From Actinomycetales bacterium (GTDB taxonomy: Bacteria; Actinomycetota; Actinomycetes; Actinomycetales; Dermatophilaceae): DNA of 32,934 bases. Below, piece after piece: positions 932-32,356 of the stretch. A program made the position numbers and the translations under genes. The notes under the pieces were generated by a model. The model ran no database searches. It worked only from the letters and a program-made list of their open reading frames with translations, and was not told the origin of the DNA. The stretch spans positions 1 to 32,934 of the forward strand of contig JBBSVB010000001.1 of the NCBI GenBank assembly GCA_038233875.1, given 5' to 3'. The stretch's first letter is position 1; each line of letters opens with the position of its first letter.

Positions 932-994
932 ACGTGAACACCCAAAGGAGGGGCGGCAGCACGATTCGTGACTTGACGGCACCACGTGTAACGA

Positions 995-1012
995 TATGCG
1001 AATGCGCGCATA
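995..1012. promoter_or_regulatory. ArsR/KmtR-type operator palindrome overlapping the regulator start
   Basis: TATGCG-N6-CGCATA perfect inverted repeat over the ATGs at 996 and 1002. Confidence 0.65.
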
Positions 1013-2467: not shown

Positions 2468-2536
2468 CGCGGCGCTGCGCTGTCGGGACCCCGTGACGAG
2501 GGGTGGTCTTCGACCCTCGGCTCGTAGGCTTAGGCC

Positions 2537-3053: not shown

Positions 3054-3098
3054 AAGCCATCGCGATGCTGACGCAAGGACACGCTGGCACTGATCGCT

Positions 3099-5444: not shown

Positions 5445-5453
5445 AACTTCATC

Positions 5454-5470
5454 ATACCCCTAGGGGGTAT
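5454..5470. promoter_or_regulatory. CsoR/RicR-type copper operator within the copA promoter
   Basis: ATACCCC-TAG-GGGGTAT palindrome between TTGCGC (-35) and TATGAT (-10) on the minus strand; -10 is 6 nt from ATG. Confidence 0.85.
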
Positions 5471-5527
5471 GCGCGCAAGTGCTGCCAGACCCCGACCCGG
5501 AAGGTTCGAGGACTTACCGCCTGTTGG

Positions 5528-5758
5528 TCAGATGTGGTCGTGTGAACCATCAGGGGTGGGCACTTTGGTGCTCGACTGTGCTTCTGGTTCCTCGGCGTCC
5601 TTGCGGGCTTTCCCACCGGACATCGAGGCCATCATGAGGAACATCATCAGGGGGCAAGCGAGCACGAGCAGGAAGTAGGCGGGCATCCCTGCCAGCACCG
5701 CAATCCCGGCCACAACGACCGCGACGGCCCCGTAAGCGAGGTTCTTGGTGGTGAACAT
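5528..5758 (-). CDS. DUF2933-like small membrane protein of copper clusters
   Basis: Two hydrophobic segments, LLVLACPLMMFLM motif, GGAGG RBS. Confidence 0.8.
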   Translation of the reverse strand: MFTTKNLAYGAVAVVVAGIAVLAGMPAYFLLVLACPLMMFLMMASMSGGKARKDAEEPEAQSSTKVPTPDGSHDHI

Positions 5759-5905
5759 GTCAGCCTCCGACCTTCACGACGACTCCTGTCGCCTAACCAC
5801 CAGTGTGGGTCGGGTGCTCGGCGTCGCTCAGAGTCGAAAGACCCTCGCCGAAGAGTCCGAGTGACCACGCAGCCCTAGCACGAGCGCCTTCGCAGTAACC
5901 GAGGA

Positions 5906-5945
5906 GCCGACCGCTGCACCCCAAGAAGGGCGTGCAGCAGTCGGC
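5906..5945 (-). terminator. GC-rich stem-loop just after the DUF305 stop (terminator or mRNA stabiliser)
   Basis: gccgaccgctgcac...gtgcagcagtcggc inverted repeat; no U-tract. Confidence 0.5.
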
Positions 5946-5955
5946 CCCGAGTGGG

Positions 5956-6507
5956 TCAGGAGCCGAGCATCTTCTTCATCTGGGCCATCTCGGTCGTCTG
6001 AGCCTTCTCAATGTTCTTGGCGAGTGCCTTCGCGTCGGCGTTCTTGCCCTTCGACTGCTCGGTCTTCGCCATCTCGATGGCCCCGGTGTGGTGGGCGACC
6101 ATCATGGTCAAGAACATCTTGTCGAAGGTGGCACCGGTGGCCTCGTCGAGGCCCTTCATGTCGGAGTCGCTCATCATCCCCGGCATGCCAGACATGCCGC
6201 CCATCGAGCCGGACGACTTGGACTTGCCCCAGTCCTTGAGCCAGCCCTTCATCGTGGAAATCTCGGGTCCTTGCGCGCCCTCAATCTTGTCGGCCAACTT
6301 CTTCACCTCCGGTGACGAGGCGTGCGCCTTCGCCATCTTCGCCATCGCAACGGCCTGCTCGTGGTGGGGAATCATGGACTGAGCGAACGTCACGTCGGCC
6401 TTGTTGAAATCACTGCCGCCGTTTCCGCTGCTACTGCCGCTTCCGCAGGCAGTGAGGGCAAGTGCCGCCACCACGGCGAGGGTGATGGCGCTGAAAAGTC
6501 GCTTCAT
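5956..6507 (-). CDS. DUF305 (CopM-like) copper-binding lipoprotein
   Basis: Lipobox LTAC; MIPHHEQAVAMA and MVAHHTGAIEMA repeats; Met-rich linker. Confidence 0.92.
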   Translation of the reverse strand: MKRLFSAITLAVVAALALTACGSGSSSGNGGSDFNKADVTFAQSMIPHHEQAVAMAKMAKAHASSPEVKKLADKIEGAQGPEISTMKGWLKDWGKSKSSGSMGGMSGMPGMMSDSDMKGLDEATGATFDKMFLTMMVAHHTGAIEMAKTEQSKGKNADAKALAKNIEKAQTTEMAQMKKMLGS

Positions 6508-13500: not shown

Positions 13501-13621
13501 CGAGATTGAGGTCCCCAGCGACCAGCACCGTCTGGATGTCGGTCTGAATGTCGGCTTCGGTCCGCGTGCCGGTTCGCGTGGCGAGTCGGGTCACGGCCCC
13601 CTGTGTCACCTGATTCGCCAT
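10545..13621 (-). pseudogene. Type IIG-like fused restriction endonuclease/N6-adenine methyltransferase/specificity protein, split by a 1-bp frameshift near 11883-11886
   Basis: N-terminal RVD..IEVKK nuclease motif, GEYYTP, VLDPSCGSGTF, NPPW; continues in another frame with FAFVMP and TRD-like C-terminus (VVYTASG, YLTGILNS). Confidence 0.85.
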
Positions 13622-13652
13622 GTTGTCCCTTTCCCGAGATCTTGTCGTCGAC

Positions 13653-13674
13653 ACCCTAGGGGTCTGCACCGTCA
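13653..13674 (-). promoter_or_regulatory. PafBC/RecA-NDp-like promoter (1 mismatch) upstream of the RM gene
   Basis: TGACGG-tgcagacccc-TAGGGT versus consensus TGTCRG-N10-TANNNT. Confidence 0.45.
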
Positions 13675-13722: not shown

Positions 13723-14886
13723 TCATGAGCCCGAGGTTTCTATCGGGCTCAATGCTTGGCGCGCCTCGGCTAGCGGGATGCGTTCTTGTTCGATACGCCG
13801 GTGTCCGGTCCATGCGGGGTCTTTGAGGCGCTCGTAGACGGCTCGTTCTTCGTCGGTGAGGTTCGGCAGGGGTTTGTGGGTGCCTGCAGTGAGTGGATTG
13901 TTGTTGGCGTCGGTGTTGGTGCCGAACCGTTCGTAGGTGTCGTACGTGGCGGGGTCCATGAGGATGCTGGTGACGTTGATCCCGGCTTGGCGGAAGCCGT
14001 TGAGGATCTCGTAGCCGTGGGCGTCGATGTCGCCCCAGTAGTAGAGGTGTGGGGCTTCTGTGAGCCACGGGAACGCGGCTGCGGTGTTGCCTCCGTAGCC
14101 TGCGCCTTCGACTGCGATGCCACCTGCGATGGGTGGGAAGTGGATGGCGGTGTCCTTGTTCTCAGAGATCAGCACGACGCGGGGCGTGTAGGCGGGAGTG
14201 AAGGGGTCGTCGACGGTGGCGGAGTCGTGGTGTCGCTCACCGGCTGCACGGTGGGCCGGGTCGAGGTAGGTGAAGTTGACGCGGGCTGGGTGTCGTGGGA
14301 GGAGGCCGAGGTCGTCTTTGCCGCTGAGGTGTTGGACGTGTTGGCGGTGGGTGTTGAGCCATTTGGCGTGGAGCCCCTCGATGGGGACTTGGCGTGGGGT
14401 GAGGCCGGTGGCGTCGTGGGTGGCGAACCAGTCGGCGACGGTGCAGAGGAGTTCAAAGTCTGTGTCGGTGTAACCGTCGACTGCTCGTATGAGCCGTGCG
14501 TGGTCACTGATGTGCCCGAAGCGTTCGTGGAGTTTCCGGTGTCGGTGACGGCCTCGGGTGAGGCGGTGTTCCCAGTCGGGTCCCGCAACGGTGGCGGCGG
14601 TGCCGATGTCGGGGACGGTGACGTGGGTGGGGATGGTTTGGGTGGTGGCGTGGACGCGTCGGCTGGTGGTGCGGATGGTGAGGTGGCGTGGGGTTGCCCA
14701 GTCGCGCCATTCACGGACGGCTTGCTGGACGCGGGCGAAGTCGGTTTCGAGGGTCGCTTTTGGCAGGGTGCCGAGCGTGAAGTCGTGGGGCCATGCGCTG
14801 GTGTCGCCGGTGAGGTCGGTGTGCCATGAGGTGGTGAGCCGTCGTTGGATGGCGGCGGTGATGTCGCTGGGTGTCTTCATGGTCAC
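13723..14886 (-). CDS. jetD: Wadjet JetD TOPRIM nuclease (DUF3322/DUF2220)
   Basis: PRQVPIEGLHAKWL, ISENKDT, YWGDIDAHG, RIEQERIP; GTGA overlap with jetC. Confidence 0.93.
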   Translation of the reverse strand: MTMKTPSDITAAIQRRLTTSWHTDLTGDTSAWPHDFTLGTLPKATLETDFARVQQAVREWRDWATPRHLTIRTTSRRVHATTQTIPTHVTVPDIGTAATVAGPDWEHRLTRGRHRHRKLHERFGHISDHARLIRAVDGYTDTDFELLCTVADWFATHDATGLTPRQVPIEGLHAKWLNTHRQHVQHLSGKDDLGLLPRHPARVNFTYLDPAHRAAGERHHDSATVDDPFTPAYTPRVVLISENKDTAIHFPPIAGGIAVEGAGYGGNTAAAFPWLTEAPHLYYWGDIDAHGYEILNGFRQAGINVTSILMDPATYDTYERFGTNTDANNNPLTAGTHKPLPNLTDEERAVYERLKDPAWTGHRRIEQERIPLAEARQALSPIETSGS

Positions 14887-17800
14887 GGCTGGACACCAGC
14901 CCCAGTCAGGTTTGCCGGGGCGGGGCTGTGTGGCTTGGGGATGAGAGGGGCGAGGTACGAGTAGCCCTTCGCGTTCTTGGACATGCCGAGGATCGTGTCC
15001 ATGTGCGGTTCAAGGGCGGTGACCTTGTCGAAGGGGGCTCCGATGATGAGTTGGAACCCGAGACCCTTCCATGCTGATACTGCTCGCCCGGCGAACTCAC
15101 TGTCGGATTTCACGAACCCTTCGTCGAGGAAGACGGGTGCGAATCGGGGGCGTGCTGATGCTTCGTCGCCGAGTTGGAACCGGAGGGCTGCACCGACGAT
15201 GAAGGCGACGAGTTCTTGGGTCTCCCCCCCGGACTTTCCGCCGAGTGCTGCGTAGGTGGAGCGTTCGATGCCGTGGGCGTCGACGGCGATCGCGGTGATT
15301 ACGACGTGTTTGCGGACGTCGAGGAAGTAGTCGCGGTCCCGGTTGCTGGTCTTCGAGGTGGTTTCGCGGGTCCGGATGAGGTCCATGAATCGTTGAAGGC
15401 GTTTGAAGTAGGTCTCGATCTGGTCGTCGTTGAAGTCGGTGGTTGCACCTGAGGAGAGGACGTTGAGTTCCCTCTTGAACTTGGCGATGTCGTCGCGGTG
15501 GAGGCGTCGCAGGTCGATTTGGAGGTGGTCGCGTTCGAGGTGGTCGCGGCGGTCACCGAAGGGCAGTTTGGCGAGAATCTGGTTGATGGGTTCGAGCCGG
15601 TTCTCGATGTCGGTGATGGAGTCTTCGAACGCTCCGGCGAGGGGGACGAGGTCTTCGCCGGACCAGTCGGTGAGTTTGCGTGACCACGCTGCGCGGCGCT
15701 CTGCTAGTCCTTCGGCGACGATGTTGTCGAGGATGGCCCGGTAGCCGTCGTAGGAGTCAATGAGGACTCCGAGGTTGGGGTCGGCCCAACGGTCTTGGTA
15801 GGTCACGAAGATCGTGGTGAGCGCGGTTTCGGCGCGCTGCTTCTTCTCGTTCGCTGACTTGAGTTGTTCACCGAGGCGGGCGCGTAGCCGCTTGGTGCCT
15901 TCGTCGAACCGGTCGAGGTCCTCAGGGTCAGCCACGGCGGCGTACTCATCGTTGAGGTGGGCGATCTGGTCGTCGGTGAGAGTGGCAGTCTCGTCTGCGT
16001 TGATGCGGTCGATGATGCGGCTTGCAGCGTCCCTCTTGCTGATGACCAAAGCGACGGCGGCTTCGAGATCCTTGAGGGTTTTTTCGGCGGCGTGCTTGTT
16101 TCGCCGGGCTGCTTCGAGGTCGGCAGCGATGCGCACCTCTTCGGTTTGCAGGGCACGGAGTATGTCGTTCGCGTCGAGGATCCGGGAGTGCTGATCGGCG
16201 AGGGCGGCGATTTCAGCGGTGATCGACTCTGGGTCGATGCTGCGCCATTCGGTGTCACGGACGGTTTCGTGTGCGCCCTTGGCTCCGTGGAGGTCGGTCA
16301 TCTGCTGACGCAGGGCTGCGTCGCGGCGTCCAAGGTCACCCAGTTCGGTTTCGATGTGCGTGAGGGTGTCGGCGATCTCTTGAAGCCGCTCGACGCTGGA
16401 GAAACCGATGACGTTAGGGCTGTTGTAGTCGCCGTGTGCGCCGCTCTTGCCGTGGCGGGTCTGACCGTTAATGGTGACGCGACGGTCACGGCCTGCAAGT
16501 TCAGCGGGAGTTTCGACACAAATGGCGTCGATACCTGCGTCGCTAATGCGGTCTTGGACCCATGCCGAGAACGGGGAGTCCTTGTATTGGAGTTTCCCGC
16601 TGATGCGGGCCGGGTCGAAGTCGACGTCTTCGTGGTCGCGCAGGGTGATGCCTTGGAAGTTGATGCGCTTGATGCGCATGGAGTCGATGCGGCGGCTGAG
16701 GTGGTCGAGTTGGCGTTCGTCGACGAGCATGACGCGGGCCAGCCCGTGCAGGGTCACTTCGATGGCTTTGCGCCACCGGTTCTCGTCAGGTTGCAGGTCG
16801 ACGAGTTCGGCGACGAACGGGAGGTCGGCAGGCTGCATGCCGGTTGCTTCTGCGATGGCGACGCGTGACTCGTGAAGGTCGCGCGGGACCCTTCCTTGTC
16901 GGCCCTTGAAGGACTCGGCTTCCTTGCGCAGATCGTCGCGTTCGGCTTGGAGCGGGTAGGCGCATTTGCCGAGTTCGGCCTGTTGGTCGGTCAGTGCCTC
17001 CAAGGCTGTGTCGAAGCCGGTGAGGAATGACAGGGCGTTGGCTTGTGCCGTCGCGAAGTCGTCAGCGGTGTCGATGTGCAGGTCGAGCCGTGCGGTGCGG
17101 GTGTCGAAAATGGTACGGGCGCGTTCGGCGGTGTCGCGGTCGTTGCCGAGCCGGTTCATGTCCTCTTCGAGCCGCTTGAGGGCGCTGCCTCCGGCTTCGC
17201 GTTGTGCTTCTTGGACTTCGCGGAGCAGACCGTCGAGCCGTCCTTCTTCGGTGTGGGCGTCGCGGCGGATCGTTTCGTTGGCGAGCCGGTTGACCCGGTT
17301 GGCCTCTTCGGCTGTTTCGAGGAGGGCGTCTTGGGTGGTGAGTTTCCACAGCAGGAAGGGGTTGTCGCCCTCGCGGTGGATACCGAAGGTGTCGATGAGG
17401 TCGGCTGCCTCGATGGCTGCTTCGCGTTCGGCGTGAAGGTCCGGGAGCCGCCGCAGGACCTTCTCCTTTTCGGCGACGGTCAGCATGGCGTTGTAGGAGG
17501 CTTCGAGGTCGATGAAGTGTTCGACGGCGTTGTCGGCGGCAGCGAACGTGGCAGGTTCTTCGATGACCATTGACTTGTACAGGTCATCGACGGTGCGGAC
17601 CTGATGACCGGCTTGGATACGGGCGAGCAGGCGCAGAGCCTTGCTGCCGTCCCCGTTCGCGCCGATACCGAGCCGCGTGTAGAGGGTCTGGGAGAAGTTG
17701 CCGTACGTGTCATGCATGGTCACCTGCGGGAACCGGTTCTTCACGGCGCGCTTGTCGAACTTGGTGGCGGCGACTTCGGACCATTCGGCGAGGTTGAGTG

Positions 17801-18302
17801 GTCCGTCGCAGGTGGCGAATTTGCGGACGAGGTCGGAGTCGCGGGTTGCTCCTCGGGGGACGAAGTACAGGCGGGTGGCGGTGAACCGGCGTTTGTTGTC
17901 GTCGATGAAGGTCATCGCGATGGCACCCCATGTGGTGCCGTCGGCTCCGCGCAGGACTTGGTCGCGGAGTTCCCCGGTTCCTGCTTCGCGGTTGCTGTCG
18001 GTCTTGCCGCGCAGGTAGGTGAGAAGGTTGCGCTGGTCGACGCTGCGGGCTCGTCCGGTGGTGGCGTCGTTGGAGGCACCGTTGAAGGGGGTTCCCGACG
18101 GCATCATCAGGGCGATGTAGGCGTCGAGGAGGGTGGACTTGCCGGTGCCGGATGCACCTGAGATGAGGGTGCCGTCCGGTGAGAAGTTGACGGTGGTGGG
18201 GCCGTGGAAGCCGCCCCAGTTGACCATCTGCAGCGTTTCGGCTTTCCACTGTGTGGTGCCTTCGGTGGCTCCTTCGATGTAGAGCAGGGCGTCTTGTGTC
18301 AT
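14883..18302 (-). CDS. jetC: Wadjet JetC SMC-like ATPase
   Basis: [11 protein letters not shown], Walker A GASGTGKS, long coiled coils with [10 protein letters not shown] hinge, KSGGE signature, VFLDEGF; ATGA overlap with jetB. Confidence 0.95.
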
Positions 18303-19120
18303 GGGGTGCTGTCCTCCAGCATCGGGTCGCTGGGCTCGGTCGTCGTGGCCGGTGTTTCGTTTTCGAGGATGAGCCATTCCCAGAGTTCTTGAAGGCGAGG
18401 CAGGGGGAGCAGGACGGCGATGACCGGGGCGATGCGCAGCCGTTCGGTGTCGTTGGTCTTGAGCAGGATCTTGGCCTTGATGAGCGCGTCGATCGCGTTG
18501 ACGGTGCGCTTGGCATCCCCGGAACGGTTCGTGGCGTGTGAGGGCCGGAACGTGGTGACGTGGGCCATCAGGTCTTCACGGTCCACGTGGACGCTGTCGT
18601 GGCCTGCGGAACGGTCGCTTTGGAACCGGTGCCGCAAGAACACCATGAGGATGGTTTCCTCACGGCTGTAGGCGGTGTCGTGCAGCATCGTGGGGAACTG
18701 CCTGTTGCCGCCTTCGGCTGTGGCCTGCCGCTTGAACGCCACTTGGTGCTGGTGGTCGATGTGCAGGTCGAGGAACATGTCGTTCAGTCGTGCCTTGATG
18801 GCTGTCGGGGTCTCGACCAGTACCCGCCATTCGGTGGGGTTCTGGGCTGCGCTGATGTATCGGTTCTTCATCAGGGTCACGAGGGTGCGTCGCTGTACGA
18901 GGGAGAGTCCGCCTTCGTCGCCGTCGAAGAGCGACAGGGTGGACGTTTCGAGGTCTTCGTCGTCGAGGAATGCGTCGCCGCCCGCGCTCTCGTCGAACCC
19001 TTCTTCGTCTTCGGCGTCTTCGGCTTCGCCATCGTCAGTGGGGTCGGCGAGGTCGTCGGGAGCGTCTGTGGCGAGTGCGTCGTCGGCGTCGTCAGAGGAG
19101 GGCTGGGTCTCGTCGGTCAC
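18299..19120 (-). CDS. jetB: Wadjet JetB (DUF4194, KITE) with acidic N-terminal extension
   Basis: [34 protein letters not shown]; lies between jetA and jetC with 4-bp overlaps. Confidence 0.9.
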
Positions 19121-20613
19121 TGTGCCTCCTCGGTCTGTTCGTGCAGTGCGACTAGGTCTTCGGGGTCGAGGCTCATCCGGGGGACGAGGAACTCGCGGTG
19201 TTCACCGCCGGGGCGGATGGCCTTAAACACTTCGGTGTCATCGGCACCTTCAAGCGCGTCAAGGCGTGACACCACATGCAAGAGGCCGAGGATTTCGACT
19301 GGGCGACGCAACTCGTCGGGAAGTTCGTTGAACATTTGCCCTACCGAGTCGGTGTCACCGGTCGCGAACGCCTCGGTCAGCGCAGTTCGCAGATCACTCA
19401 GGGAGGGTCCGCCTTGCTGCCGGATCTGTTCCAGCGTGAGCGCCTCGGGAGCCTCATCGGCGACGTTCTCAAGCGGCGGTGGCGGTGCGGCGGACGCCGG
19501 GTCGTAGAACCGTTCACGCATGTGACCCACCTCGACGGTGGGAGGGATAAGTTCCACGTCGACGGTGACGCGTGGCCCGGCGGTTTCCATCCACGTAACG
19601 AGTTCACGTTCGATCCCGCGCAGGGTGCGGTCCAGTTCACGTTCGGCAAGCACGTCATGGTTGACGATGTGTTCGCGCAGTGTCGCGGTGAGCCGGTGAC
19701 GTTGGGAGAGAACGTCTTTGGTGCCCTGACGGATGAGCCCGACAGCGCCCCGGAACTCGGTCACGTCTCCGGGTTCGAGGTAGGCAGCGAACGGGTGACG
19801 AAGGATGGCCTGCACGTTCTGGTCGAACTCCAACATGAGTGCGGGGTCGCGGAGAAGCACGAAGGCCCCGTCGAACGCACGGCCCTCGGGGGTCGAGCGG
19901 ATGAGTTCTTCTTGGCGTGCGAGGTAGTCATCAAGGACCTCGCTGACCCGGCGGTCTTCTTCACGGAAGTCCCGAAGAATCTCCCGGTGCATCTGGGCGA
20001 CCGACTCCTCGACTCGTTTGAAGTCCGAGGGCAACTGGCCGATGAGGTCCACAAGGTTGACGTAGCCGTCGAGCATGCGGTCGGTAGAGGCAACCTCGAC
20101 TGCCCCGCCTGCGGCGAGCCGGTCCCGTTCGGCTTCGAGTTCACGGATTTGATCGTTGAGCCGTTCGATGCGCGCGTCGGCGTCGGGGCTGGCTTCGAGT
20201 GCCCACCGGCGCACCGCATCGAGGATGGTGTTCAGCCTTGACTCGCTCAGCAGCGCTCGCTCACGCGACATGGACTGGACGAGATCGAGGGCCTCCAACG
20301 CGTGGGAGGTGAGCGAATACTCCGGGCCATCGTTGCCGTCTGCGCGGTAAAGCCACTGGTCTCGTGTCCATTGCATGCACAGCGACCTGCCGGTCGCGTT
20401 CGGCGGAAGGGTCTCCCCCACGGTGCGGAGGTCGTCGAGGTAGGCGTCAACCTGCGCGTGGAGCCGCTCGGAGGCCGCGGCGCGACGGTCCCGGCTGAAC
20501 GTGGAACGGAAGATGGCGACGACCAGCGGTGCCCACTTGGAATCAAGCAACCGAAGGGTCGGGCGTTCAAATGAGTCCCGCGTACGCGCAAGTTCACCGC
20601 GAATCTCGCCCAT
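19117..20613 (-). CDS. jetA: Wadjet JetA (DUF3375, kleisin)
   Basis: [39 protein letters not shown]; first gene of a four-gene coupled operon. Confidence 0.92.
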
Positions 20614-20643
20614 CAACCCTCACCCCCGCTCGCCGTCCGATGA

Positions 20644-22117: not shown

Positions 22118-22547
22118 CTGCCGTCACAGAGGCGTGGCCCGCCGTACCGAATCAGATCGAGCACCGGTGACCCCAACGCTCTCGATTCGGGGTCAGACGG
22201 GACGCGTCCAGAGCGAATGCAAGCGGACAAACCGGGCCGCACCCTTGTCTCATGCACGACCTGCTGCACCTCTTCTAACCCGGCGGTCGAGGGACCAAGG
22301 ACAGGTGGCAGCCGCCACTCCCGACGGCTGCCTCTATTCATCACCAGCCACAACCCGTCCACGCCGCGCTACGGCGTATAGGAAGGACGACCTATGACTA
22401 CGAGTGGTGACGACACCGTCATCGGCTTCCACCGACACGCCCAGAGCACACCAAAGAACGACGGCGACCTCTCTGGCGACGGCACACAGTGGGTTCCCGA
22501 GATCGATGGTTGCGCCGTGTCAGAGGTCGACGCTGACGTCCGCAACA

Positions 22548-22563
22548 CCGAACATGTGTTCGA
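22548..22563. promoter_or_regulatory. LexA (SOS) box upstream of tnsA
   Basis: CCGAACATGTGTTCGA versus actinobacterial consensus TCGAAC-N4-GTTCGA. Confidence 0.75.
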
Positions 22564-22669
22564 TGGCAAGAGGGATGATGATGGCGACTCGGATGGGCAG
22601 AAGGAACGGCTGACCCTGCTGCACGGTGGCGGGCTCAGTCGTGCCGAGCCCAATCGCACAGGAGTCACA

Positions 22670-23581
22670 GTGTCAGCCCTAAGCCCAACTCTCTCCAGCC
22701 CTGCCCTGCCCGAAACTCGGTTCACAGGTCTGGGTCGCCACGACGCGCCACTCACCCGGTTCCGTCACGAGCGCACTAGCCCTCCCCTCTGGTCGGCCAC
22801 AGCCACGTGGCGTGATCTCGTACAGGAACGTGACGTCCCGGTCATGCCCGACCTGCCAGCACGATGGGGCACCGACTGGACCGTCACCTACCGCCACGGC
22901 AAGAACACACTGACCGCCAGCGTCGCCTCGGTCGGTATTGGTGACCTGCTGGTCGCCGACCCCATCCGGGTGAACTCGTGGCATCCGGGGAAGACAGCAC
23001 GGGCGGGTCTGCGGTTCGTGCATTCGACCGGGTACCACCACGCCCACGAGTCGCTGTTCGAACGCAAGTTGCTCTACGTCCTCGACTTCGACGACGCGAC
23101 CGCCATCGCCTGCCAGCCCTTCACCCTGACATGGCACGACGGGCACCGGGTTCGGCACCACACCCCTGATTTCCTCGTCGAAGTCGACGGCCACATCGTC
23201 ATCATCAACACCCGCCCGGCGGCTCTGGTCAAGGACCCGCTCATCGAAGACGCCACTGCTATCGGTGAGGTATGCCTGTCGCGGGGGTGGGACCACTCCC
23301 TCGTCGTCGGCTACTCCCTGCCCGGCATCACCACCGTGGAGACCATCGAGACGCACGCCACCTCCACTGACCACCTCGGCTACACCGACGAGGTTCTCGA
23401 CCTCCTGACCACCTACGGGCCGACACCCTTCGCCGAGGTGTGCGACGCGTTCGAGGCTCCCGTGCTGGCACGGGCAACGCTTCAACGGCTCATGTGGGAA
23501 CGGCAGGTCTCGGTCGACCTGAACGCTCCGCTGCAGGACTGGTCACTGGTGGCGCTACCCGGAGAGGAGACGCAGCCATGA
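22670..23581 (+). CDS. tnsA: TnsA-like heteromeric transposase endonuclease subunit (start uncertain: 22394, 22556, 22670 or 22844)
   Basis: HESLFERK..LDFD, QPFTL, HTPDFLV..INTRP, GWDH, C-terminal winged helix; AGGAG RBS before GTG 22670. Confidence 0.88.
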   Translation: MSALSPTLSSPALPETRFTGLGRHDAPLTRFRHERTSPPLWSATATWRDLVQERDVPVMPDLPARWGTDWTVTYRHGKNTLTASVASVGIGDLLVADPIRVNSWHPGKTARAGLRFVHSTGYHHAHESLFERKLLYVLDFDDATAIACQPFTLTWHDGHRVRHHTPDFLVEVDGHIVIINTRPAALVKDPLIEDATAIGEVCLSRGWDHSLVVGYSLPGITTVETIETHATSTDHLGYTDEVLDLLTTYGPTPFAEVCDAFEAPVLARATLQRLMWERQVSVDLNAPLQDWSLVALPGEETQP

Positions 23582-25779
23582 CCGCGTTCCGGCCCGCCAA
23601 GGGCACCGAGTTCTACCTCAACGGCGAATGGCACCTCATCGAATCCGTCGACCACCGTGCCGGTTCGCTCACGGTCGTGGACCGCAACGGGGTCCTCACC
23701 ACCATGTCTGTCGAGGACCTCATCAACCATCGGTCGTTGACGCGTGACGATGACCGGCTACCGCCACAAGATCTGGTAGCGCGGCTCCCAGAGGCGGACC
23801 GGCAGGTCGCCATCATGCGCATCGAGCACGCCAACGAGGCCATGACCGGGTTCCGGTCTGGTGACCCGAACGTTGCACTGCCCGGCGAACCAAAGCCCGA
23901 GTACGACCCTGCGACCACTTTCCAGAAGGACCGGTTGGCTGCGAAGCACGCCGAACTCGACACAGAGTTCGCCCGGCTGCTCGGTGTTGACATGAGCGTG
24001 CGGACGATTCGTCGGTTGGGGACGGCAGCCAAGGACGGCACCGTGTTCGCGACCGCCGCAGGTTCTCACGGGCCACGACGGGTGAAGGGGCGTCGCGCTA
24101 TCTGCCGTGAGGTCGCCGAGGAGACCTTCCGGGTCGTCGAGGACCGTCGCCAGTTGTCAAACAAGACGGTGCGGGGCATGCATGTGGAGTTGCGTCGCCG
24201 CCTGATGGAGCAGGGGTACGGCGAGGCGTGGATGGGGAAGAACTTCCCTGAGGAGCGCACGTGGCGCAGGTTTGTTCACGACTACTGGACGCCGAGCGAA
24301 CTGACCGGCAAGTCCCGCACCCGCGCCTCGGGCACCGTCGCACCGGTTGGCGGATTCCGTCGGATGAACCCGACCCGTCCGGGCCAGATCGTGTTCATGG
24401 ACACCAACAGCCTCGACGTGCTCCTCAAGGGCACCGCCATCGAGGGGGCTGTCCGGGGTTCTGTGGTTGTGGGTCTCGACCAGTTCTCACGGTCGGTGTG
24501 CAGCGTCCGGGTCGTCGAGCAGGCCGAGAAGAACCTCGACATCGGGTTCGCGTTGCTCGACCTTGCCAAGCCCAAGCAGATGAAACCGGACTGGCCTGAC
24601 GATGCTCGCTGGCCTTTCGTTGGCATCCCCGAAGGGGTCCTCGGCACCAGCGCCACGGGTTCTGGTGTCGGCATCGCGGGGCTGCCGATCGTCAACCCCG
24701 AATCCCTCGGTCTTGACCACGGTGGCCCGTACAAGGCCCACAAGACCCGCGAACTGGCTGCCCGGTACGGCATCGACATCCTGCCCGCCCGCACCTACAC
24801 CGGATCCGACAAGGCATGGATTGAACGGTTCTTCGGTGCGCTGCGGACCATGCTCCTCGAACACCTCGAAGGCTACCGGGGCAGTGACACCTCTGAACGC
24901 GGCAAGAACACCGACAACGAAGTCGAGTGGACAGCGCAACGTCTCGAAGACCTCATCGCGTTGTGGGCTGTCAGGATGTGGCAGACCCACATCATGGAAG
25001 GTGTCCGTCCGTCGTGGTGCCCTGAAGGTCACTGGTCACCTAACAGCCTGTACCAGCACGGTATCGAGACCGCCGGGCTCTCACCGCGTCTGATGACGTC
25101 CTCGGACTTCTACGGTGTTATCACCACCACCTACGTCAAGGTCCATTCACGTGGCGTGAACGTTCGCGGCCTCTGGTACGACAACGACCCCGACACGGGC
25201 GAGACGGTGCTGGACTCGCGCCGTAACCAGCCCGCCCCGACCGGGAACAAGAAGTGGACCGTCCAGTACGACCGCCGCGACCTGCGGCACGTCTGGTTTG
25301 TCGACGAGTTCGAAGAACGTCATCTGCTCCGTTGGGTCGGGGCCACCGGTGATTTCCCGTCGTTCAGCGATCGGCACATCAACGCCCTCCGCAACCGCAT
25401 CGACGGCCAGATCCGGCAGTACGACTCCCACGAACTCGCCGAAATCCTGCTCACCGAGGTTCTGCCCGTCCGTACCCCCGAGGGGTGGATTGCCGGAGAC
25501 AAGGCGGCGAACAAGGCAGCGTCAGCGCACGCCCGCGACCGTGAACTTGCTGTCGGGGACGCCGCGAACTATGCAGCCGCCGAATCCGCACCACCCGAAC
25601 CGGAGCCGGAGCCCGCGACCGCGTTGGAAGCCAAGCGCAAGGAGCGGCGTCAACGCGCCACCGGCGGCAACCCGTCCCGGCCAGCCGCGACCCCTGCGGC
25701 TTCTACTGCGGCCCGTCTGAGTTCAACCCCCAGCAGCATGCTCGACACCATCGCCGCCCTACGCAAGGACCAATCATGA
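23578..25779 (+). CDS. tnsB: TnsB-like DDE transposase (Mu-type)
   Basis: FMDTNSLD, LDHGGPY and KAWIERFF catalytic triad; VQYDRRDLRHVW Mu C-terminal motif; ATGA overlap with tnsA. Confidence 0.93.
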   Translation: MTAFRPAKGTEFYLNGEWHLIESVDHRAGSLTVVDRNGVLTTMSVEDLINHRSLTRDDDRLPPQDLVARLPEADRQVAIMRIEHANEAMTGFRSGDPNVALPGEPKPEYDPATTFQKDRLAAKHAELDTEFARLLGVDMSVRTIRRLGTAAKDGTVFATAAGSHGPRRVKGRRAICREVAEETFRVVEDRRQLSNKTVRGMHVELRRRLMEQGYGEAWMGKNFPEERTWRRFVHDYWTPSELTGKSRTRASGTVAPVGGFRRMNPTRPGQIVFMDTNSLDVLLKGTAIEGAVRGSVVVGLDQFSRSVCSVRVVEQAEKNLDIGFALLDLAKPKQMKPDWPDDARWPFVGIPEGVLGTSATGSGVGIAGLPIVNPESLGLDHGGPYKAHKTRELAARYGIDILPARTYTGSDKAWIERFFGALRTMLLEHLEGYRGSDTSERGKNTDNEVEWTAQRLEDLIALWAVRMWQTHIMEGVRPSWCPEGHWSPNSLYQHGIETAGLSPRLMTSSDFYGVITTTYVKVHSRGVNVRGLWYDNDPDTGETVLDSRRNQPAPTGNKKWTVQYDRRDLRHVWFVDEFEERHLLRWVGATGDFPSFSDRHINALRNRIDGQIRQYDSHELAEILLTEVLPVRTPEGWIAGDKAANKAASAHARDRELAVGDAANYAAAESAPPEPEPEPATALEAKRKERRQRATGGNPSRPAATPAASTAARLSSTPSSMLDTIAALRKDQS

Positions 25780-27011
25780 CCATCTCACTCGACGACTTCG
25801 TCACCGTTGACCTGTCCGAGATCGAGAAACTCGACATCAGTGATCTCGACGGATGGAAGACGTTCGTGCGGCTGCGTGACGCTTACACACCCCCTCCGCT
25901 GCTGAGCCGCGACGACTACGAGTCGCTCAACCTCAGGGACCGGGTCAAGTACGACGCCATCCGGCACATTGGCAACTTCAACATGCCCAAGTTGCAAACC
26001 CCCATGACCGCTCACGTACGCAGCCAAGTCGAACGTGTACTACGCGCCAACATCTACCGGATGGACCCCGGTGTTCGCTCCGGTGTCTTCATCTCCGCAG
26101 ACGGGTCAATGGGCAAGAGCACCCTTATGCGCGAGATTGCCGCCAACCATGAAGCCGAACTCGAAGCCCTACGCGAAGTCCTCCCCGGATCTATTCACTT
26201 CCGTGACAGGTGGGTTCCCGTCGCGTGGGTCACCGTCCCACCGAAACTGTCCATCCGGAGCCTCGCCACCGCGATCCTCAACTTCTACGGGGAGCCGTTC
26301 CGGCCCAGCGCCACCGATCCCCAGATGACCCGGCGGGTTGAAGATGTCATCCGCGACTGCGGAACCCGGCTTCTCGTCCTTGACGACATCACCCGCTACA
26401 AGGACGCCGAAGCAGACCGGTACGCCTCGGACTGGATCCGGAACCTCATGGAATCCTCCGTCACGATCGTCGCACTGGGTGTTGACGTGCGCGGCTCAGG
26501 AATCCTCTACGACGGAGCACGAGGACGCGAACAACGACTACGGACACAAACCGCGCAACGCTTCACCGTCCTCGACATCGAACCGTTCCGCTACGACACC
26601 GACGACACCACCCGCGACTGGGTAGACCACCTGCGCGCCGTCGAAGCCGACCTTCTCCTCCTTGACAAGGAACCCGGCATGCTCGAAGCCCATGCCGAAC
26701 ACATCTATGCCCGTACCGGCGGAGTCATCGGTGTCTTCAGCGAATGGGTGCAGTTGGCAGCCGAATCCGTCATCGGGAGGCACCCGGCTGACGGCGGGGA
26801 AACGCTGACACGCGCCGATCTTGACGAGGCCCCCATCCGGGGCCAGCACACCTCACCCGACACCTCGGTAGTCCAGCCGCGTTCCAAGGTGAAGAGGACG
26901 ACGCGCGTCCCCGCGAAGAAGGGACGCAACACCGTCTTCGACCAACCCACCCGTCACCCGAACTCACGCCCAGCCAAGACCCGGCCCACGCCACAGGACG
27001 GTGTGGCATGA
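25776..27011 (+). CDS. tnsC: TnsC/TniB-like AAA+ ATPase
   Basis: ADGSMGKST Walker A, VPVAWVTVP, LLVLDDI Walker B, QRF, RTGGVIG; ATGA overlap. Confidence 0.92.
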   Translation: MTISLDDFVTVDLSEIEKLDISDLDGWKTFVRLRDAYTPPPLLSRDDYESLNLRDRVKYDAIRHIGNFNMPKLQTPMTAHVRSQVERVLRANIYRMDPGVRSGVFISADGSMGKSTLMREIAANHEAELEALREVLPGSIHFRDRWVPVAWVTVPPKLSIRSLATAILNFYGEPFRPSATDPQMTRRVEDVIRDCGTRLLVLDDITRYKDAEADRYASDWIRNLMESSVTIVALGVDVRGSGILYDGARGREQRLRTQTAQRFTVLDIEPFRYDTDDTTRDWVDHLRAVEADLLLLDKEPGMLEAHAEHIYARTGGVIGVFSEWVQLAAESVIGRHPADGGETLTRADLDEAPIRGQHTSPDTSVVQPRSKVKRTTRVPAKKGRNTVFDQPTRHPNSRPAKTRPTPQDGVA

Positions 27012-28858
27012 CCGCAGACCTCACCATCGTGGCGAACACCCCGACACCAGAGACGACCATCACCGACTGGCGTCGGCTCCTCCCCCGCAGCAACCAGCCC
27101 TTATCCGACGAAACTCTCGCCGGATACGTCCTCAACCTCGCCTACCGGCTCGACCTGACCCCCACCGGAGTCATGAAGAGGACCGGGCTCACCAGCAAAC
27201 AGAGAGCCCACGTCCTCCAACTTCAATACGGGATCCGTCTCCCCGACGACACCCTCCACCGGTTCACCACGAGCACCGGCCTCAGCACCCACGAAGCACA
27301 AGCGATGACACTGCACCGCTACGCCGACCTCACCACCATCCCCCGCATCTCCAAGGTCCGCGACGACCGGCAATGGCTCGACCCACGCACCAGCCGCTAC
27401 TGCCCCCACTGCCTCGCCGAACCCACCCCACAAGGCGACGAGCACCCCCTCTGGCGCATCCAATGGCTCACCCCGTGGGCTGTGGCCTGCCCACGACACA
27501 ACTGCCTACTCCTTGACGCCTGCCCCGGCTGCGGCACCCGAGTCGGTGAAAGCGGCGGTCAACTCCGCAGCCTCATCCCTCACGTCGGGAACCCCGTCAC
27601 ACACCCCGCCGTCTGCCGGGCCAAGCCCGCCGACGCGAAATACCTAACCGCCTGCGACACGCGCCTCGACCACGCCGAAACAATCCCAGCCCCAGCCGCC
27701 CTCATTGACCAGCAACGGCTCTTCGACCAGATCCTCAACGGCGAACAACCCGACACGCTCACAAGTCTCGGCGCACCAGTCACACCCCGCGAATACCTGC
27801 TTGACCTGCGGCTCGTCACCGTCATGCTGCAACTTGCCGGGGACCCCACCGTCCTTAACGACCAGCCCGCGCCCTTCGCCGAAGCCGCCGCTGACTACAT
27901 AGCCACGCGCAGCGACAGCGTCGGCACCCTCAACCGTCACGGGCGAACAATCACCCTTCCCCCGGACGGCTACACCGCCAGCACCGGGCTCATCCTCACC
28001 GCCGCCCACCTACTCAACGACACCGACCGCATCGACACGATCAACCGCCTCGCCCAACTCGCCCTCATCAACGAACGTCACACATGGCGCACCGCCCAAG
28101 CCGGAGGTGAACCCAGCCACGCCCTTTGGGGTGCTCTTACCAACCAGCGGCTCCACACCACGGCCCCCGAACGGCTCCGCAGCCACCTCGGCACCAGCAC
28201 CCTCATCTTCAAGCCCCGCCACGTCCCCGCCTACCTGCCGCGAGACCTCTACGACAAACATTTCCCCGCCGTCCCCAGCACCTACCGCCGCCGCATCCGC
28301 CGACACGTACCGATCGCACTGGTCCGGCTCGTCGGAGACTTCGAAACCGCCGAGGACGCAGGCACTTACCTCGGCTACAACCCCACCGCGACGGCCCAAG
28401 CCACCGGCAGGCTCGCCAAAGCCCTCACCGACAGCGACCTCACCCTCGCCACACGAGTCGCCGCCATCGCCCAAGAACTCGAAGCCAGCCCCCGCATCGA
28501 CTACGGCACACCGCGCAACCACATCGGCCCGAACTGGAACGTCCCGGACCCCATCTGGGACACAGCCTGCCAAGCCCTCGCCGACAACGGCCTCGTCCGC
28601 GCCAACATCGACTGGGCTAAACGCCGAACTCTCTACGCGATCTGGGTATGGGAACTCGTGACCGGCGGCGACATCGCCGTCGCCCCCATGATCACCGGCC
28701 CCCTCCCGCCCGGCACCGTCCACCAACTGCAGGGCCTCAAACGCATGGCAACGCAACGCCACCACGACCTCATCGCCGATCTTGCCGAGGTTGTGCGGAC
28801 GAAAATGTTTCAGGAGTCAGACGCGTCTAGTGGTCTGACGCCCGCTCGCGACTGTTGA
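27008..28858 (+). CDS. tniQ: TniQ/TnsD-family target selector with long C-terminal extension (616 aa)
   Basis: PLSDETLAGYVLNLA, RYCPHCL, WRIQW, ACPRHNCLLLDACPGC; ATGA overlap with tnsC. Confidence 0.92.
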   Translation: MTADLTIVANTPTPETTITDWRRLLPRSNQPLSDETLAGYVLNLAYRLDLTPTGVMKRTGLTSKQRAHVLQLQYGIRLPDDTLHRFTTSTGLSTHEAQAMTLHRYADLTTIPRISKVRDDRQWLDPRTSRYCPHCLAEPTPQGDEHPLWRIQWLTPWAVACPRHNCLLLDACPGCGTRVGESGGQLRSLIPHVGNPVTHPAVCRAKPADAKYLTACDTRLDHAETIPAPAALIDQQRLFDQILNGEQPDTLTSLGAPVTPREYLLDLRLVTVMLQLAGDPTVLNDQPAPFAEAAADYIATRSDSVGTLNRHGRTITLPPDGYTASTGLILTAAHLLNDTDRIDTINRLAQLALINERHTWRTAQAGGEPSHALWGALTNQRLHTTAPERLRSHLGTSTLIFKPRHVPAYLPRDLYDKHFPAVPSTYRRRIRRHVPIALVRLVGDFETAEDAGTYLGYNPTATAQATGRLAKALTDSDLTLATRVAAIAQELEASPRIDYGTPRNHIGPNWNVPDPIWDTACQALADNGLVRANIDWAKRRTLYAIWVWELVTGGDIAVAPMITGPLPPGTVHQLQGLKRMATQRHHDLIADLAEVVRTKMFQESDASSGLTPARDC

Positions 28859-29091
28859 TGGGCCTCTGCCTTGGCAAGTGCTTCGGTGTAGCCGTCCGCC
28901 TCGATGCGTAGCCGATCGAGGAACTCCTGCACGGCGAGGGCGACAGTCTCTTGATGCGACGCAGTACCCACGAAAGCCGCCGCAACCTGCAACTCGAACC
29001 GGGTGCGGGCTGTCACGCGGTACCCGATCGGGTCGCCCCGGTCCGGGTTCGGCTTCGGGCCGCGCCGTCCTCCGCGTGCCTCCGCCGCCAT
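28810..29091 (-). CDS. Small ribbon-helix-helix-like DNA-binding protein
   Basis: Basic arm GRRGPKP, strand IGYRVT, two helices; GAGGA RBS. Confidence 0.6.
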   Translation of the reverse strand: MAAEARGGRRGPKPNPDRGDPIGYRVTARTRFELQVAAAFVGTASHQETVALAVQEFLDRLRIEADGYTEALAKAEAHQQSRAGVRPLDASDS

Positions 29092-29112
29092 GTCAGTCCT
29101 CGCCTCTACTGT
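29091..29112 (+). promoter_or_regulatory. PafBC/RecA-NDp-type promoter upstream of the PRTase-like gene
   Basis: TGTCAG-tcctcgcctc-TACTGT; -10 overlaps an ACTGT-N11-ACAGT inverted repeat (29108-29128). Confidence 0.55.
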
Positions 29113-29153
29113 GAAACTTAGTAACAGTGTCGCGCACGACCGTGGAGGCAGCA

Positions 29154-29582
29154 ATGACGATCACGATCCCCGCCGGTTCGTTGATGGAGTCCGCGCTCAA
29201 CGGGGAGCAGCAACTCGACGCCTTAGCCGAGCACGAGGTCCTCGCCTCAGCAGCGTCGGCACTGCTCGACGCTGTTGCGGCAGCCGGTCACGTTGCCGTC
29301 CGACCTATCGGTCGAGGTGGAGCGCTCATCGTGGGCGCAGCGTCGATGATGAGCCACGGGTCGCTACAGCACTCGCCCGAAGGAACACCCGCCGAAGAGA
29401 CCAGCAAGATCATGGTCGTCGACGCCGTGGCTGTCGGTCACGGCGTAGTCGAGCGCGCTGTCAACCAAGCCCGCCAGTCGGGAGCCGATTGGGTCGGAGC
29501 GTGGGTGTGGCGAGGATCCCCCACTCTGAACTGCGACGGCATCACCGCAGACCACGTCGCCGTCGACGGACTATTGAACTAA
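29154..29582 (+). CDS. Degenerate type I phosphoribosyltransferase-fold protein
   Basis: RPIGRGGALIVGA and KIMVVDAVAVGHGVVERAVNQARQSGADWVGAWV follow the VVDDxxxTG...GA pattern with substitutions; GGAGG RBS. Confidence 0.6.
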   Translation: MTITIPAGSLMESALNGEQQLDALAEHEVLASAASALLDAVAAAGHVAVRPIGRGGALIVGAASMMSHGSLQHSPEGTPAEETSKIMVVDAVAVGHGVVERAVNQARQSGADWVGAWVWRGSPTLNCDGITADHVAVDGLLN

Positions 29583-30014
29583 CTGCGCCGCCAAAGCAGC
29601 CGAAGCCGAGACTTTCCAGACCGCAGGCGCGATCTTCTTCGCCCGCTCCTCCGCCTCCGCAAGATCGCCTCCGCAGGCTGAGCCGACCTGAGGGCCGCTC
29701 ATCACACGAACGTCATTGCAGTGCTGGCGCGCCAGATAGATGGCAGCACCCTCGGCACGCAGGCGCAGCACCGTTGGTGCCGTCAGTCCACCTCGCGCCC
29801 CGTCGTCTCCCTGCCGGACGACAATCCGCTCGATATCTGACAGTGCGTTCAGACGAGCATCGAGACCGTCCGAGATGGCGGCGATCTTCTCAGCCACGTC
29901 GTCGGTGTCCGGGGCGAGATAGTCGAAAGTGACAACGTCTGTGCCATCAAGCACGACGCTACGCAGTCGCGGCTTGCCCTTCTCGACTCTGACCGCCAAA
30001 CCCACATACACCAT
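29571..30014 (-). CDS. RuvC/RNase H-like fold protein lacking catalytic acids
   Basis: YVGLAV, IVVRQ, RAEGAAIYLA, VRVMSGPQV and SAALAA map onto the RuvC layout; TAGGCT -10 7 nt before ATG. Confidence 0.55.
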   Translation of the reverse strand: MVYVGLAVRVEKGKPRLRSVVLDGTDVVTFDYLAPDTDDVAEKIAAISDGLDARLNALSDIERIVVRQGDDGARGGLTAPTVLRLRAEGAAIYLARQHCNDVRVMSGPQVGSACGGDLAEAEERAKKIAPAVWKVSASAALAAQLVQ

Positions 30015-30077
30015 GTCAAGCAGCCTAAGATGCGGTCGATGACACAGTCGCGCTTCCACCCGACAGTCTCATCAACC

Positions 30078-31112
30078 ATGCAATTCGACCACCGCTACAA
30101 CCTCATCGACTACAAAGGCGGAGGAGGCTACGGAGAAGTCTGGCTAGCCACCGACACCACCACCGGACGCCAAGTCGCCCTCAAACTCCTCGACCCCAAC
30201 CACACCACCCCCGACGACGCATGGCGCGAAGCCACAACCCTCACAAGCCTCCGCAGCAAATACATCGCACAAGTCCACGGAGCCACCCTCAGCCAAGTCG
30301 GCATCCCCTACATCGACATGCAATACCTGCCCAACGGCAGCATCGGCGACGCCCTCCCCAACCACGGCGTCACAGAAGCAACCGCAGTCAGATGGGGCCT
30401 ACGCGCAGCACGCGGACTCCACCTCTGCCACGAAAGCAAAATCCTCCACCGAGACGTCAAACCCGACAACCTCCTCCTCTCAGCAACCGGCGACGTCCTA
30501 CTCAGCGACTTCGGCGTAGCAGCCAAAATGGCCGCAGACGGCACCGCCAGCCCCCACGGCGACCCAGACATACGAGCCCCCGAAACATTCACCGGACAAC
30601 AACTCACCGTCCAATCAGATGTCTACTCACTCGGCGTAACCCTGTTCGCAATGGTCACCGGACACCTCCCCCACACCCTCACAGCACACGGCGGCGACGG
30701 AGGAGCACTCGTCACCGCCGTACTCGCAGGCATCCCAGACCCAAGAGACCAAGCCCCGCACCTCACCCTCGGAATGGCCCGCGTCATCACAACCGCCACA
30801 GCCCTCGACCCCGCAGACCGATACGCCTCAGCCAACGACCTCGACAACGCCCTATCCAAATTGAAGACACCACACCGCACCATCGTGCGAACCACCCCAT
30901 GCGACCCCAACGGGCGCTGCTGGAACGCCACCCCAGCCGGAAAAACCAAGAACAAGCCCATACACATCTGCGCACGACCAGCGCCAACAACACCCCACGT
31001 CCATATCGAGACACGGCACCAAGGCGGCAACCGCATCGCCGCACACTGCGACGAAGTCACCCCCGCCAAGGCCACCGCCCGGCTCAAAGCCGTTTTCCGC
31101 GCCCTACTCTGA
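30078..31112 (+). CDS. Soluble Hanks-type Ser/Thr protein kinase with small Cys/His C-terminal domain
   Basis: GGGGYGEVW, VALK, HRDVKPDN, DFG, APE, DVYSLG; no TM segment. Confidence 0.93.
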   Translation: MQFDHRYNLIDYKGGGGYGEVWLATDTTTGRQVALKLLDPNHTTPDDAWREATTLTSLRSKYIAQVHGATLSQVGIPYIDMQYLPNGSIGDALPNHGVTEATAVRWGLRAARGLHLCHESKILHRDVKPDNLLLSATGDVLLSDFGVAAKMAADGTASPHGDPDIRAPETFTGQQLTVQSDVYSLGVTLFAMVTGHLPHTLTAHGGDGGALVTAVLAGIPDPRDQAPHLTLGMARVITTATALDPADRYASANDLDNALSKLKTPHRTIVRTTPCDPNGRCWNATPAGKTKNKPIHICARPAPTTPHVHIETRHQGGNRIAAHCDEVTPAKATARLKAVFRALL

Positions 31113-31336
31113 CGGCCTCCCACAGCACGCCACAACGGCTCGGACTCGCTGGCCCGCTGGCCCGCTGGCGGGGGGACGCGACTGCTGTCCACCCAGACAC
31201 GGGTCCACGCAAGAGCGCCCAACCCCCGCAGGCGGACCTGCACACCCCATCTGCGGGCCAACCACGCCGCACGCGGGAAGTTACACGCCCCACACCGTAA
31301 ACCGCGTGGACGGCGGCGATCTCGGAGATCAGGGCC

Positions 31337-31483
31337 ACTGCTGTCCAACGAACGTGTCAAAAACTGCTGTCCAATGAAAGTGTCAACGCACCAAAACTGC
31401 TGTCCACGGAAAGTGTCAACACCGATTTCACGCTCAAATGTCCACGACAAGTGTCAAATGGACAACTTAAGTGTCAATTCACA
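31337..31483 (-). repeat. Tn7-like transposon end: terminal TGT plus five TnsB-binding-type repeats
   Basis: Plus-strand core TGTCCA-N6-GTGTCAA (terminal copy TGGACA) ending at 31360, 31386, 31419, 31457 and 31477; minus strand reads TGTGAATTGACACTTAAGTTGTCCA; candidate 5-bp TSD GCAAG at 31484-31488. Confidence 0.9.
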
Positions 31484-31489
31484 GCAAGG

Positions 31490-32356
31490 CTACTTCAGGA
31501 ACTTGGACATGCGCCGGTCGGCCAGCGGCTTTCCTCCGGTCTGGCAGGTGGCGCAGTACTGCAGGCTCGAGTCGGCGAAGCTGACCTCGCGTACGACGTC
31601 GCCGCAGACCGGGCACGGCTGGCCGGTGCGGCCGTGCACCGCCATGTTGCTCTTCTTCTCGCCCTTGAGCTCGCTCGCAGCCAGACCGCTGGAGCGCTTG
31701 ACCGCGTCGCCTAGGACGGTGCGGATGGCGTCGTGCAGCGTCTGCAGCTCCTCCTCGCTCAGGCTGTTGGACGCCTTGAACGGCGACATCTTCGCGGCGT
31801 GCAGTAGCTCGTCGGAGTAGGCGTTGCCGATGCCGGCGATGTTGCTCTGGTAGCGGAGCACGCCCTTGATCTGGGCCCGGCCCGCATGCTGCAGGATCTC
31901 ACCGAGCACCTGGGGCGTGAAGTCGCCGGCCAGGGGATCGGGACCGAGACGCGCGATCCCCTCGACCTCGGACGGGTCGCGGACGACGTACAGCGCCAGG
32001 CTCTTGCGCGTCCCCGCCTCGGTGATGTCGAGGCCGGCGCCGTTGTCGAGCACGATCCGCGCTGCGAGCGGCGACTTGTTGCTGGGCCGAGGGGGGAGGG
32101 CCGGCACCTCCTCCTTCCAGCGCACCCAGCCGGCTCGCGCGAGGTGGAGCACGAGGTGGGTGCCGGACACGTCGAGGTCGAGGAACTTGCCGTGGCGGGT
32201 GACGCCGTCGACCATGCCCCCGGCCAGTGCGGTGACCGGTGGGTCGTAGGTCTTGAGGCAGCTGAACGCCGCGATGTCGACGCGCACGATCGCTCGACCG
32301 TCCAGGCGCTGGGACAGGTCCTGGACCAAGGCTTCGACCTCGGGCAGCTCGGGCAC
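31490..32356 (-). CDS. Fpg/Nei-family DNA glycosylase/AP lyase (host gene)
   Basis: N-terminal PELPEVE, RHGKFL, H2TH IAGIGNAYSDE, C-terminal CPVC..YCATCQ zinc finger. Confidence 0.95.
   Translation of the reverse strand: MPELPEVEALVQDLSQRLDGRAIVRVDIAAFSCLKTYDPPVTALAGGMVDGVTRHGKFLDLDVSGTHLVLHLARAGWVRWKEEVPALPPRPSNKSPLAARIVLDNGAGLDITEAGTRKSLALYVVRDPSEVEGIARLGPDPLAGDFTPQVLGEILQHAGRAQIKGVLRYQSNIAGIGNAYSDELLHAAKMSPFKASNSLSEEELQTLHDAIRTVLGDAVKRSSGLAASELKGEKKSNMAVHGRTGQPCPVCGDVVREVSFADSSLQYCATCQTGGKPLADRRMSKFLK

Follow-up and report, generated by a model that had tools for sequence, protein, structure and literature searches.

A family of Tn7-like elements in actinobacteria inserted at the 3′ end of an Fpg/Nei-family glycosylase gene, with sister elements at whiG

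The DNA analysed here (the window; 32,934 nucleotides, the entire contig G000:C1 of an assembly of an Actinomycetales bacterium) carries one side of a Tn7-like transposon that ends six nucleotides from the stop codon of a gene for a DNA glycosylase paralogue of the Fpg/Nei family. Our results indicate that the 3′ end of this gene (the fpg site) is a real and recurrent attachment (att) site, with a sister site at whiG. A comparative analysis of the elements suggests that a single long TniQ protein very probably reads the last codons of the paralogue and places the insertion. The fpg and whiG sites are likely two undescribed protein-guided sites, at which an actinobacterial clade without characterised members applies the known logic of TnsD to new target genes.

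The insertion in the window and its empty allele

The features of the window that define the insertion are the following.

22394 to 23581, plus strand: TnsA-like endonuclease (Pfam Tn7_TnsA-like_N, E 2.8e-4, under the cut-off; NF033179, 99.4 bits against a cut-off of 110)
23440 to 25779, plus strand: TnsB transposase with a D-D-E triad
25776 to 27011, plus strand: TnsC AAA+ adaptor (Pfam TniB/AAA_22; Walker A GSMGKS, Walker B LLVLDD)
27008 to 28858, plus strand: TnsD-sized TniQ of 616 amino acids (TniQ domain, CxxC zinc motifs, long helical C-terminal part)
31340 to 31483, minus strand: target-side transposon end (terminal TGT/ACA, five TnsB-type sites, the first two 20 bp apart; same layout in the relatives in genomes G177 and G062)
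31484 to 31488, plus strand: 5-bp target-site duplication GCAAG (second copy ahead of the far end, on contig G000:C138)
31490 to 32356, minus strand: intact host Fpg/Nei-family DNA glycosylase paralogue of 288 amino acids (Pfam Fapy_DNA_glyco, H2TH, zf-FPG_IleRS)

Positions 31480-31495 read CACA GCAAG G CTA CTT, so that the terminal ACA ends at 31483 and is followed by GCAAGG and by the minus-strand stop codon TAG at 31490-31492. A preliminary description of this DNA had proposed that GCAAGG alone parts the terminal ACA from the stop codon of an intact glycosylase gene, that the single TniQ is of TnsD size and that cas genes are absent. The window agrees on each point: Pfam TniQ matches residues 29-168 of the 616-residue protein (E 4.6e-21) ahead of a long C-terminal extension, as in TnsD-type proteins; this TniQ is the sole selector evident in the window; and no Cas family was matched among the 30 window open reading frames (ORFs) scanned.

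The tnsA-like gene, tnsB, tnsC and tniQ start at 22394, 23440, 25776 and 27008 and form a single row on the plus strand; a TnsB DDE transposase, a TnsC AAA+ ATPase and a TniQ-family gene thus share one operon, as expected of a Tn7-like element. The true start of tnsB may be a later ATG near 23578. The D, D and E residues of TnsB are conserved in 10/10 aligned elements, and the Walker motifs of TnsC are conserved too. In all 10 the TnsA-like protein keeps the PD motif and continues with N-x-R, D/E-x-K being the usual continuation in TnsA. Read inwards, the target-side end begins with TGT and holds five repeated TGACAC-N-TGGACA-type sites. The arrays are asymmetric, with sites starting at 8, 28, 66, 99 and 125 nt at the gene-facing end and at 8, 53, 75, 105 and 139 nt at the other.

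A left end preceded by GCAAG had been predicted, and a motif scan of the whole assembly found one such end, on C138 (terminal TGT at 5749, minus strand). A rhodanese-like gene, named from a reading of its translation and not from a family scan, begins 9 nt from this end. The element extends past the window start and measures at least 37 kb (at least 31,483 + 5,749 bp); C138 and the window contig do not overlap, and the middle between them is unassembled. The comparison with an empty site that the preliminary description had proposed is provided by a 369-bp contig of the public run X20, which differs from 31484-31574 at 1 of 91 positions and then passes into the flank on C138. This empty allele carries one GCAAG, within the 10-bp gap between the glycosylase stop codon and the rhodanese start, and positions 29500-31454 are not covered by this run.

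The target gene reaches neither the mutM nor the Nei cut-offs of NCBIfam (150 against 212 for PRK01103, 146.5 against 203.3 for TIGR00577, 78 against 400 for Nei2) and is therefore regarded as a paralogue. The earlier designation fpg/nei thus stands at the level of the family, by Pfam, and not for canonical mutM or Nei. The glycosylase may resemble mycobacterial Fpg2. Its identity is 74-77% with genes from genomes of the genus Nocardioides, 56-62% with orthologues in relatives of the bin that makes up the assembly, and 56-57% with a further copy on contig C132 of the bin. The guanine-plus-cytosine content is 70% in the flank, 64% in the element and 64.6% in the remaining assembly. From its sequence, the window contig looks like Nocardioides-type DNA whose cargo composition led to its mis-binning. 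Together with C138 and the contigs of a second copy (C24 and C51, see below), it apparently represents two Nocardioides-type strains whose DNA was mis-binned with a genome from a different genus. The glycosylase-rhodanese locus that belongs to the bin itself, on C132, is an empty site.

Insertions at fpg and whiG in other genomes

Three further insertions were found at the same gene end. The first is a second copy in the same assembly, where the tns genes on C51 are 89-95% identical to those of the window and an end on C24 is preceded by CGCAG and lies beside a rhodanese allele that shares 83% identity with the first. A 272-bp contig of run X3 joins the end and the glycosylase and reads CGCAG at 31484-31488; 26/26 X3 variant letters checked equal C51. 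Run X3 is possibly not independent of the assembly, and we infer the join of C51 to C24. In G177, TniQ is 52% identical to that of the window, the stop codon is followed by C, GGACG and TGT, GGACG recurs after the far end, and the element measures 17.05 kb. In G062 (TniQ 37% identical; 19.9 kb) the stop codon is followed by CGCCG and TGT, and CGCCG is found at the far end.

The distance from stop codon to element end is therefore 6, 6, 6 and 5 nt in the window, the second copy, G177 and G062, and 5-bp duplications match at both ends in 4/4 fpg elements (GCAAG, CGCAG, GGACG and CGCCG). Since the background frequency of each duplicated 5-mer in host-like DNA is 0.0007-0.0095, a chance origin of four matching pairs is untenable. 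The end with two TnsB sites 20 bp apart faces the glycosylase in 3/3 fpg elements with both ends fully read; this includes G062, despite a tns operon directed away from the glycosylase. The G062 copy (G062:C151:461-20326; loci L026 and L027) has its tns operon inverted relative to the ends when set against the other elements. Alignment of its tnsA takes two frames, as does that of its tnsB, and the copy may be inactive or misassembled.

Relatives had been expected to abut fpg at a fixed distance, and every close relative with a readable flank (the second copy, G177 and G062) lies at 5-6 nt. The contrary expectation, of related elements at unrelated loci, fails for these close relatives, which are all at fpg. 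More distant ones lie at a second site, whiG (identified by PRK06288, 387 bits against a cut-off of 343). Eight of them were examined (G061, G063, G064, G878, G906, G969, L052 and L053), with TniQs about 30-37% identical to that of the window where aligned, G969 holding the last part only. All eight sit 2-4 nt past the whiG stop codon, duplications match in 4/4 with the far end found, and the close-site end faces whiG in 4/4 elements read. Because these more distant relatives use whiG, the fpg site is, on the available sequences, clade-specific. At the whiG 3′ ends compared (L019, L021, L022, L052, L053, L062, L063 and L064), the duplication takes in part or all of the stop codon in four. The whiG-clade tniQ of G878 (C5, ~1071259-1074680) is split by ~1.7 kb of other DNA.

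In a 15-row tree of TniQ proteins, from which G969 was left out, a single clade (99/96) unites the four fpg TniQs, and those of the whiG elements make up two groups outside it, the root being unresolved. A quick 35-row tree places six further proteins (P0003, P0004, P0005, P0016, P0017 and P0020) inside the fpg clade.

The element family is rare. In a survey of 401 genomes of the genus, TniQ matches at E <= 1e-20 were found in 11, of which G177 and G062 have close ones. A TGT 3-9 nt past the glycosylase stop codon occurs in 5/401 of the same genomes, with TnsB arrays only in G177 and G062; the matches in G128, G089 and G109 were rejected as chance TGTs without such arrays. A second draw of 401 from the genus contained only G177 and G062 (2/401), and a family-wide draw of 401 contained G177 alone (1/401) and added nothing. 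Nine Nocardioides genomes (L033-L042) have distant TniQs (about 25-32%), and the fpg ends of the four checked among them are empty. Relatives of the bin's own genus gave weak TniQ matches only (5/60). The relatives were located with an alignment as query, a single-protein search of genome contigs having returned none; viral contigs gave none either. Among plasmids, the 15 of 96 records listed show distant TniQs only, at <= about 29% identity, and give no hint of a plasmid pathway, though one may exist. The assembly also holds pieces of a further Tn7-like element, the third and a distant one (tnsAB 25-28%, tnsC, tniQ), on C288, C460 and C434.

The same data bear on whether the insertions derive from one ancient event at fpg, inherited vertically or moved by homologous recombination without active targeting. 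All four lie in one genus, and two share the rhodanese flank and the 6-nt offset, as this history would predict. Against it, each element has its own duplication, alike at both ends and unlike between elements; the offsets vary, and the TniQs are 37-89% identical; and only 2/401 genomes are filled, with an empty allele in a near-identical host. An ancient insertion is thus largely refuted, and we regard it as scarcely credible.

Selection of the target by TniQ

In Tn7, TnsD's C-terminal region binds the final 36 bp of glmS (+23 to +58), and insertion occurs downstream (PMC12372198). By analogy with Tn7, the C-terminal part of TniQ would bind ~20-60 bp inside the target gene and its N-terminal part would load TnsC, which in turn would recruit TnsAB for insertion just outside the reading frame, the close-site end towards the gene. 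Insertion would be positioned by its spacing from the bound sequence, whatever the bases at the cut, because the duplicated bases differ between elements. The geometry of attTn7 (PMC12372198) points to the following region.

31509 to 31550, minus strand: putative TniQ recognition region, 3′ coding DNA for CQTGGKPLADRRM

Within it, 31509-31544 is the equivalent of +23 to +58 of attTn7; it comprises the codons for QTGGKPLADRRM and is conserved in three filled sites. We infer that TniQ recognises the CQTGGKPLADRRMSK-coding DNA, as the preliminary description had it.

TniQ is the only evident target selector, because the complete relatives have no Cas, TnsE, second TniQ or arrays. [quoted passage not shown] The cas effectors and CRISPR array of a CRISPR-associated transposon are accordingly absent from the 30 window ORFs and the 42 ORFs of the two complete relatives. 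The two-pathway organisation of Tn7 is not seen either, as there is no TnsE family match and the target is not glmS. What is found is the behaviour of a TnsD-type element, a fixed distance and polarity from one gene (5-6 nt in 4/4; close-site end in 3/3).

Another factor might target the element with TniQ as adaptor only, for example an unrecognised protein of the cargo, a guide RNA, or a protein of the host that binds the gene end. There is a precedent in TnsF, which acts with TniQ at comM (PMC10293859); moreover, part of the window element is unassembled, the scan of the relatives covered ORFs from 150 amino acids upwards, and many ORFs match no family. The composition of G177 and G062 argues against such a factor, as they lack the selectors and repeats named above while their cargo differs. 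In both, tniQ ends ~300 bp from the element end, and across the elements the target gene tracks the TniQ clade. We consider targeting by another factor improbable.

Alternatively, TniQ could sense a structural or transcriptional feature of gene ends, such as a terminator or a stalled polymerase, and not a coding sequence, which would agree with insertion 2-6 nt past the stop codon in both clades. Each clade, however, uses one gene only; conservation covers the coding DNA but not the DNA past the stop codon, which varies from host to host; and the 10-bp gap of the window's empty site is too short for a terminator. A gene-end feature is therefore a very improbable signal.

Several points nevertheless weigh against recognition of the fpg codons by TniQ. 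The insertions at fpg number four, all apparently in one genus and two from one assembly. The pattern of a TGT after the stop codon was written with knowledge of G177 and G062, the number of genomes that it could match is uncertain, and the profile searches scored only three candidates per genome. A structure model of TniQ (predicted local distance difference test score 79) has as its top Foldseek match the TnsD-TnsC-DNA complex 8v32 (E 2.3e-4), a weak similarity at a template modelling score of 0.27. The six additional proteins of the 35-row tree have no retrievable genomic context. Finally, the unassembled middle of the window copy may contain a second target selector.

The two target genes may have something in common. 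The fpg and whiG ends share CTGCCAG at -63 to -65 from the end, followed by AAnGCCG, GCGCA and CAAG at similar distances. In post hoc tests, the ungapped score of this motif is at background (94/202 random gene ends score as high) and the gapped score is borderline (7/202); the shared motif is a lead only. One actinobacterial TnsD lineage might have switched between whiG and the fpg paralogue by drift along DNA features common to both ends at equal distance, which we think rather unlikely. If true, the pair would be a natural experiment in target gain by protein-guided transposons.

Cargo, use and relation to known elements

The cargo genes recognised in the window are as follows.

170 to 6507, strand unspecified: metal-resistance genes, namely two cation-efflux genes, ArsR, a P-type ATPase and DUF305 (family scan)
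10545 to 13669, minus strand: type IIG restriction-methylase in two ORFs (PADLOC PDLC03630 on both)
13723 to 20616, minus strand: Wadjet jetABCD (family scan and PADLOC listing)
30030 to 31112, plus strand: Ser/Thr kinase (best PADLOC family PD-T4-6)

The two restriction-methylase ORFs overlap, possibly through a frameshift, and a short tandem GCTGGCCC repeat lies at 31140-31165, between the kinase gene and the transposon end. The cargo regions of G177 and G062 differ and include a cyclic-oligonucleotide-based antiphage signalling system (CBASS), restriction-modification and other genes. In G062 there are a type I restriction-modification system and a CBASS with E1/JAB and TIR-SAVED. In G177, DUF305-like and copper-related-looking genes lie beyond the far end, before the rhodanese gene (C2, ~1659680-1661270; L049:14680-16270); the window element carries DUF305 internally, and the outlying genes may be left over from an earlier island. 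Taken together, the elements bring metal-resistance genes as well as defence systems (Wadjet, CBASS, restriction-modification) to a fixed position.

Mini-Tn7 is a standard tool for single-copy integration, and the fpg and whiG elements could become gene-insertion tools for actinobacteria. A segment of 35 nt from the putative fpg site, with <= 3 mismatches, occurs once each in 62/141 class-wide genomes (58/137 without G1103, G1116, G1105 and G1088, which are flagged as unpublished), with zero control matches; a working mini-element could therefore serve many actinomycetes. If TniQ does select this site, one four-gene system could insert cargo at a site present in ~4 in 10 actinomycete genomes.

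The preliminary description knew of no fpg/nei att site, and neither an fpg nor a whiG site turned up in the literature searched, to which subscription reviews did not belong. A full-text search returned no Tn7-like work tied to Nocardioides, to whiG with TnsD or to a mutM insertion site, and the papers found that pair Tn7 and TniQ with glycosylase appear to concern genome editing or genetic tools, plus Vibrio genomes. Both genes are missing from the att-site table of PMC11406308. Benler et al. 2021 (PMC8649781) do not mention glycosylase, fpg or mutM in the main text, nor an fpg or whiG target in the portion of the supplement examined. The supplements of Faure et al. examined (PMC10293859) contain no glycosylase, fpg, mutM, whiG, Nocardioides or Blastococcus, and their further supplements may bear on novelty. 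Known protein-guided sites are few, comprising glmS, parE (Tn7017), tRNA genes (PmcCAST, McCAST), yhiN (Tn6230) and comM (Tn6022) (PMC11406308), and two are added here from a clade without a characterised member. The mechanism is that known from TnsD, which limits the surprise.

A whiG element of our set, that of Blastococcus sp. TF02-8 (QOHK01000003.1; L022), is listed in Table S1A of Benler et al. 2021 in clade 2, which is dominated by Actinobacteria and has no experimentally characterised member; defence cargo, as found here, is typical of that clade (PMC8649781). With the elements at parE, tRNA genes, yhiN and comM, those at fpg share protein-guided homing to one chromosomal gene (PMC11406308), and differ from them in having no CRISPR-Cas, second TniQ or TnsF; in contrast to comM with Tn6022, the fpg target gene stays intact. 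The orientation of the close-site end towards the gene in the window, G177 and G062 fits the remark that, in Tn7-like elements, the end with close or overlapping TnsB sites is nearest the att site (PMC11406308). Compared with Tn7 itself, the elements have in common tnsABC with a long TniQ/TnsD, TGT/ACA ends with TnsB arrays, a 5-bp duplication and insertion just outside the 3′ coding end of a conserved gene (PMC12372198, PMC11406308). They differ in their actinobacterial lineage, in a TnsA with N-x-R, in the lack of TnsE in the complete relatives, in a tns operon that usually points at the target gene, and in the target itself, which is an Fpg/Nei paralogue, or whiG in the sister clade, instead of glmS.

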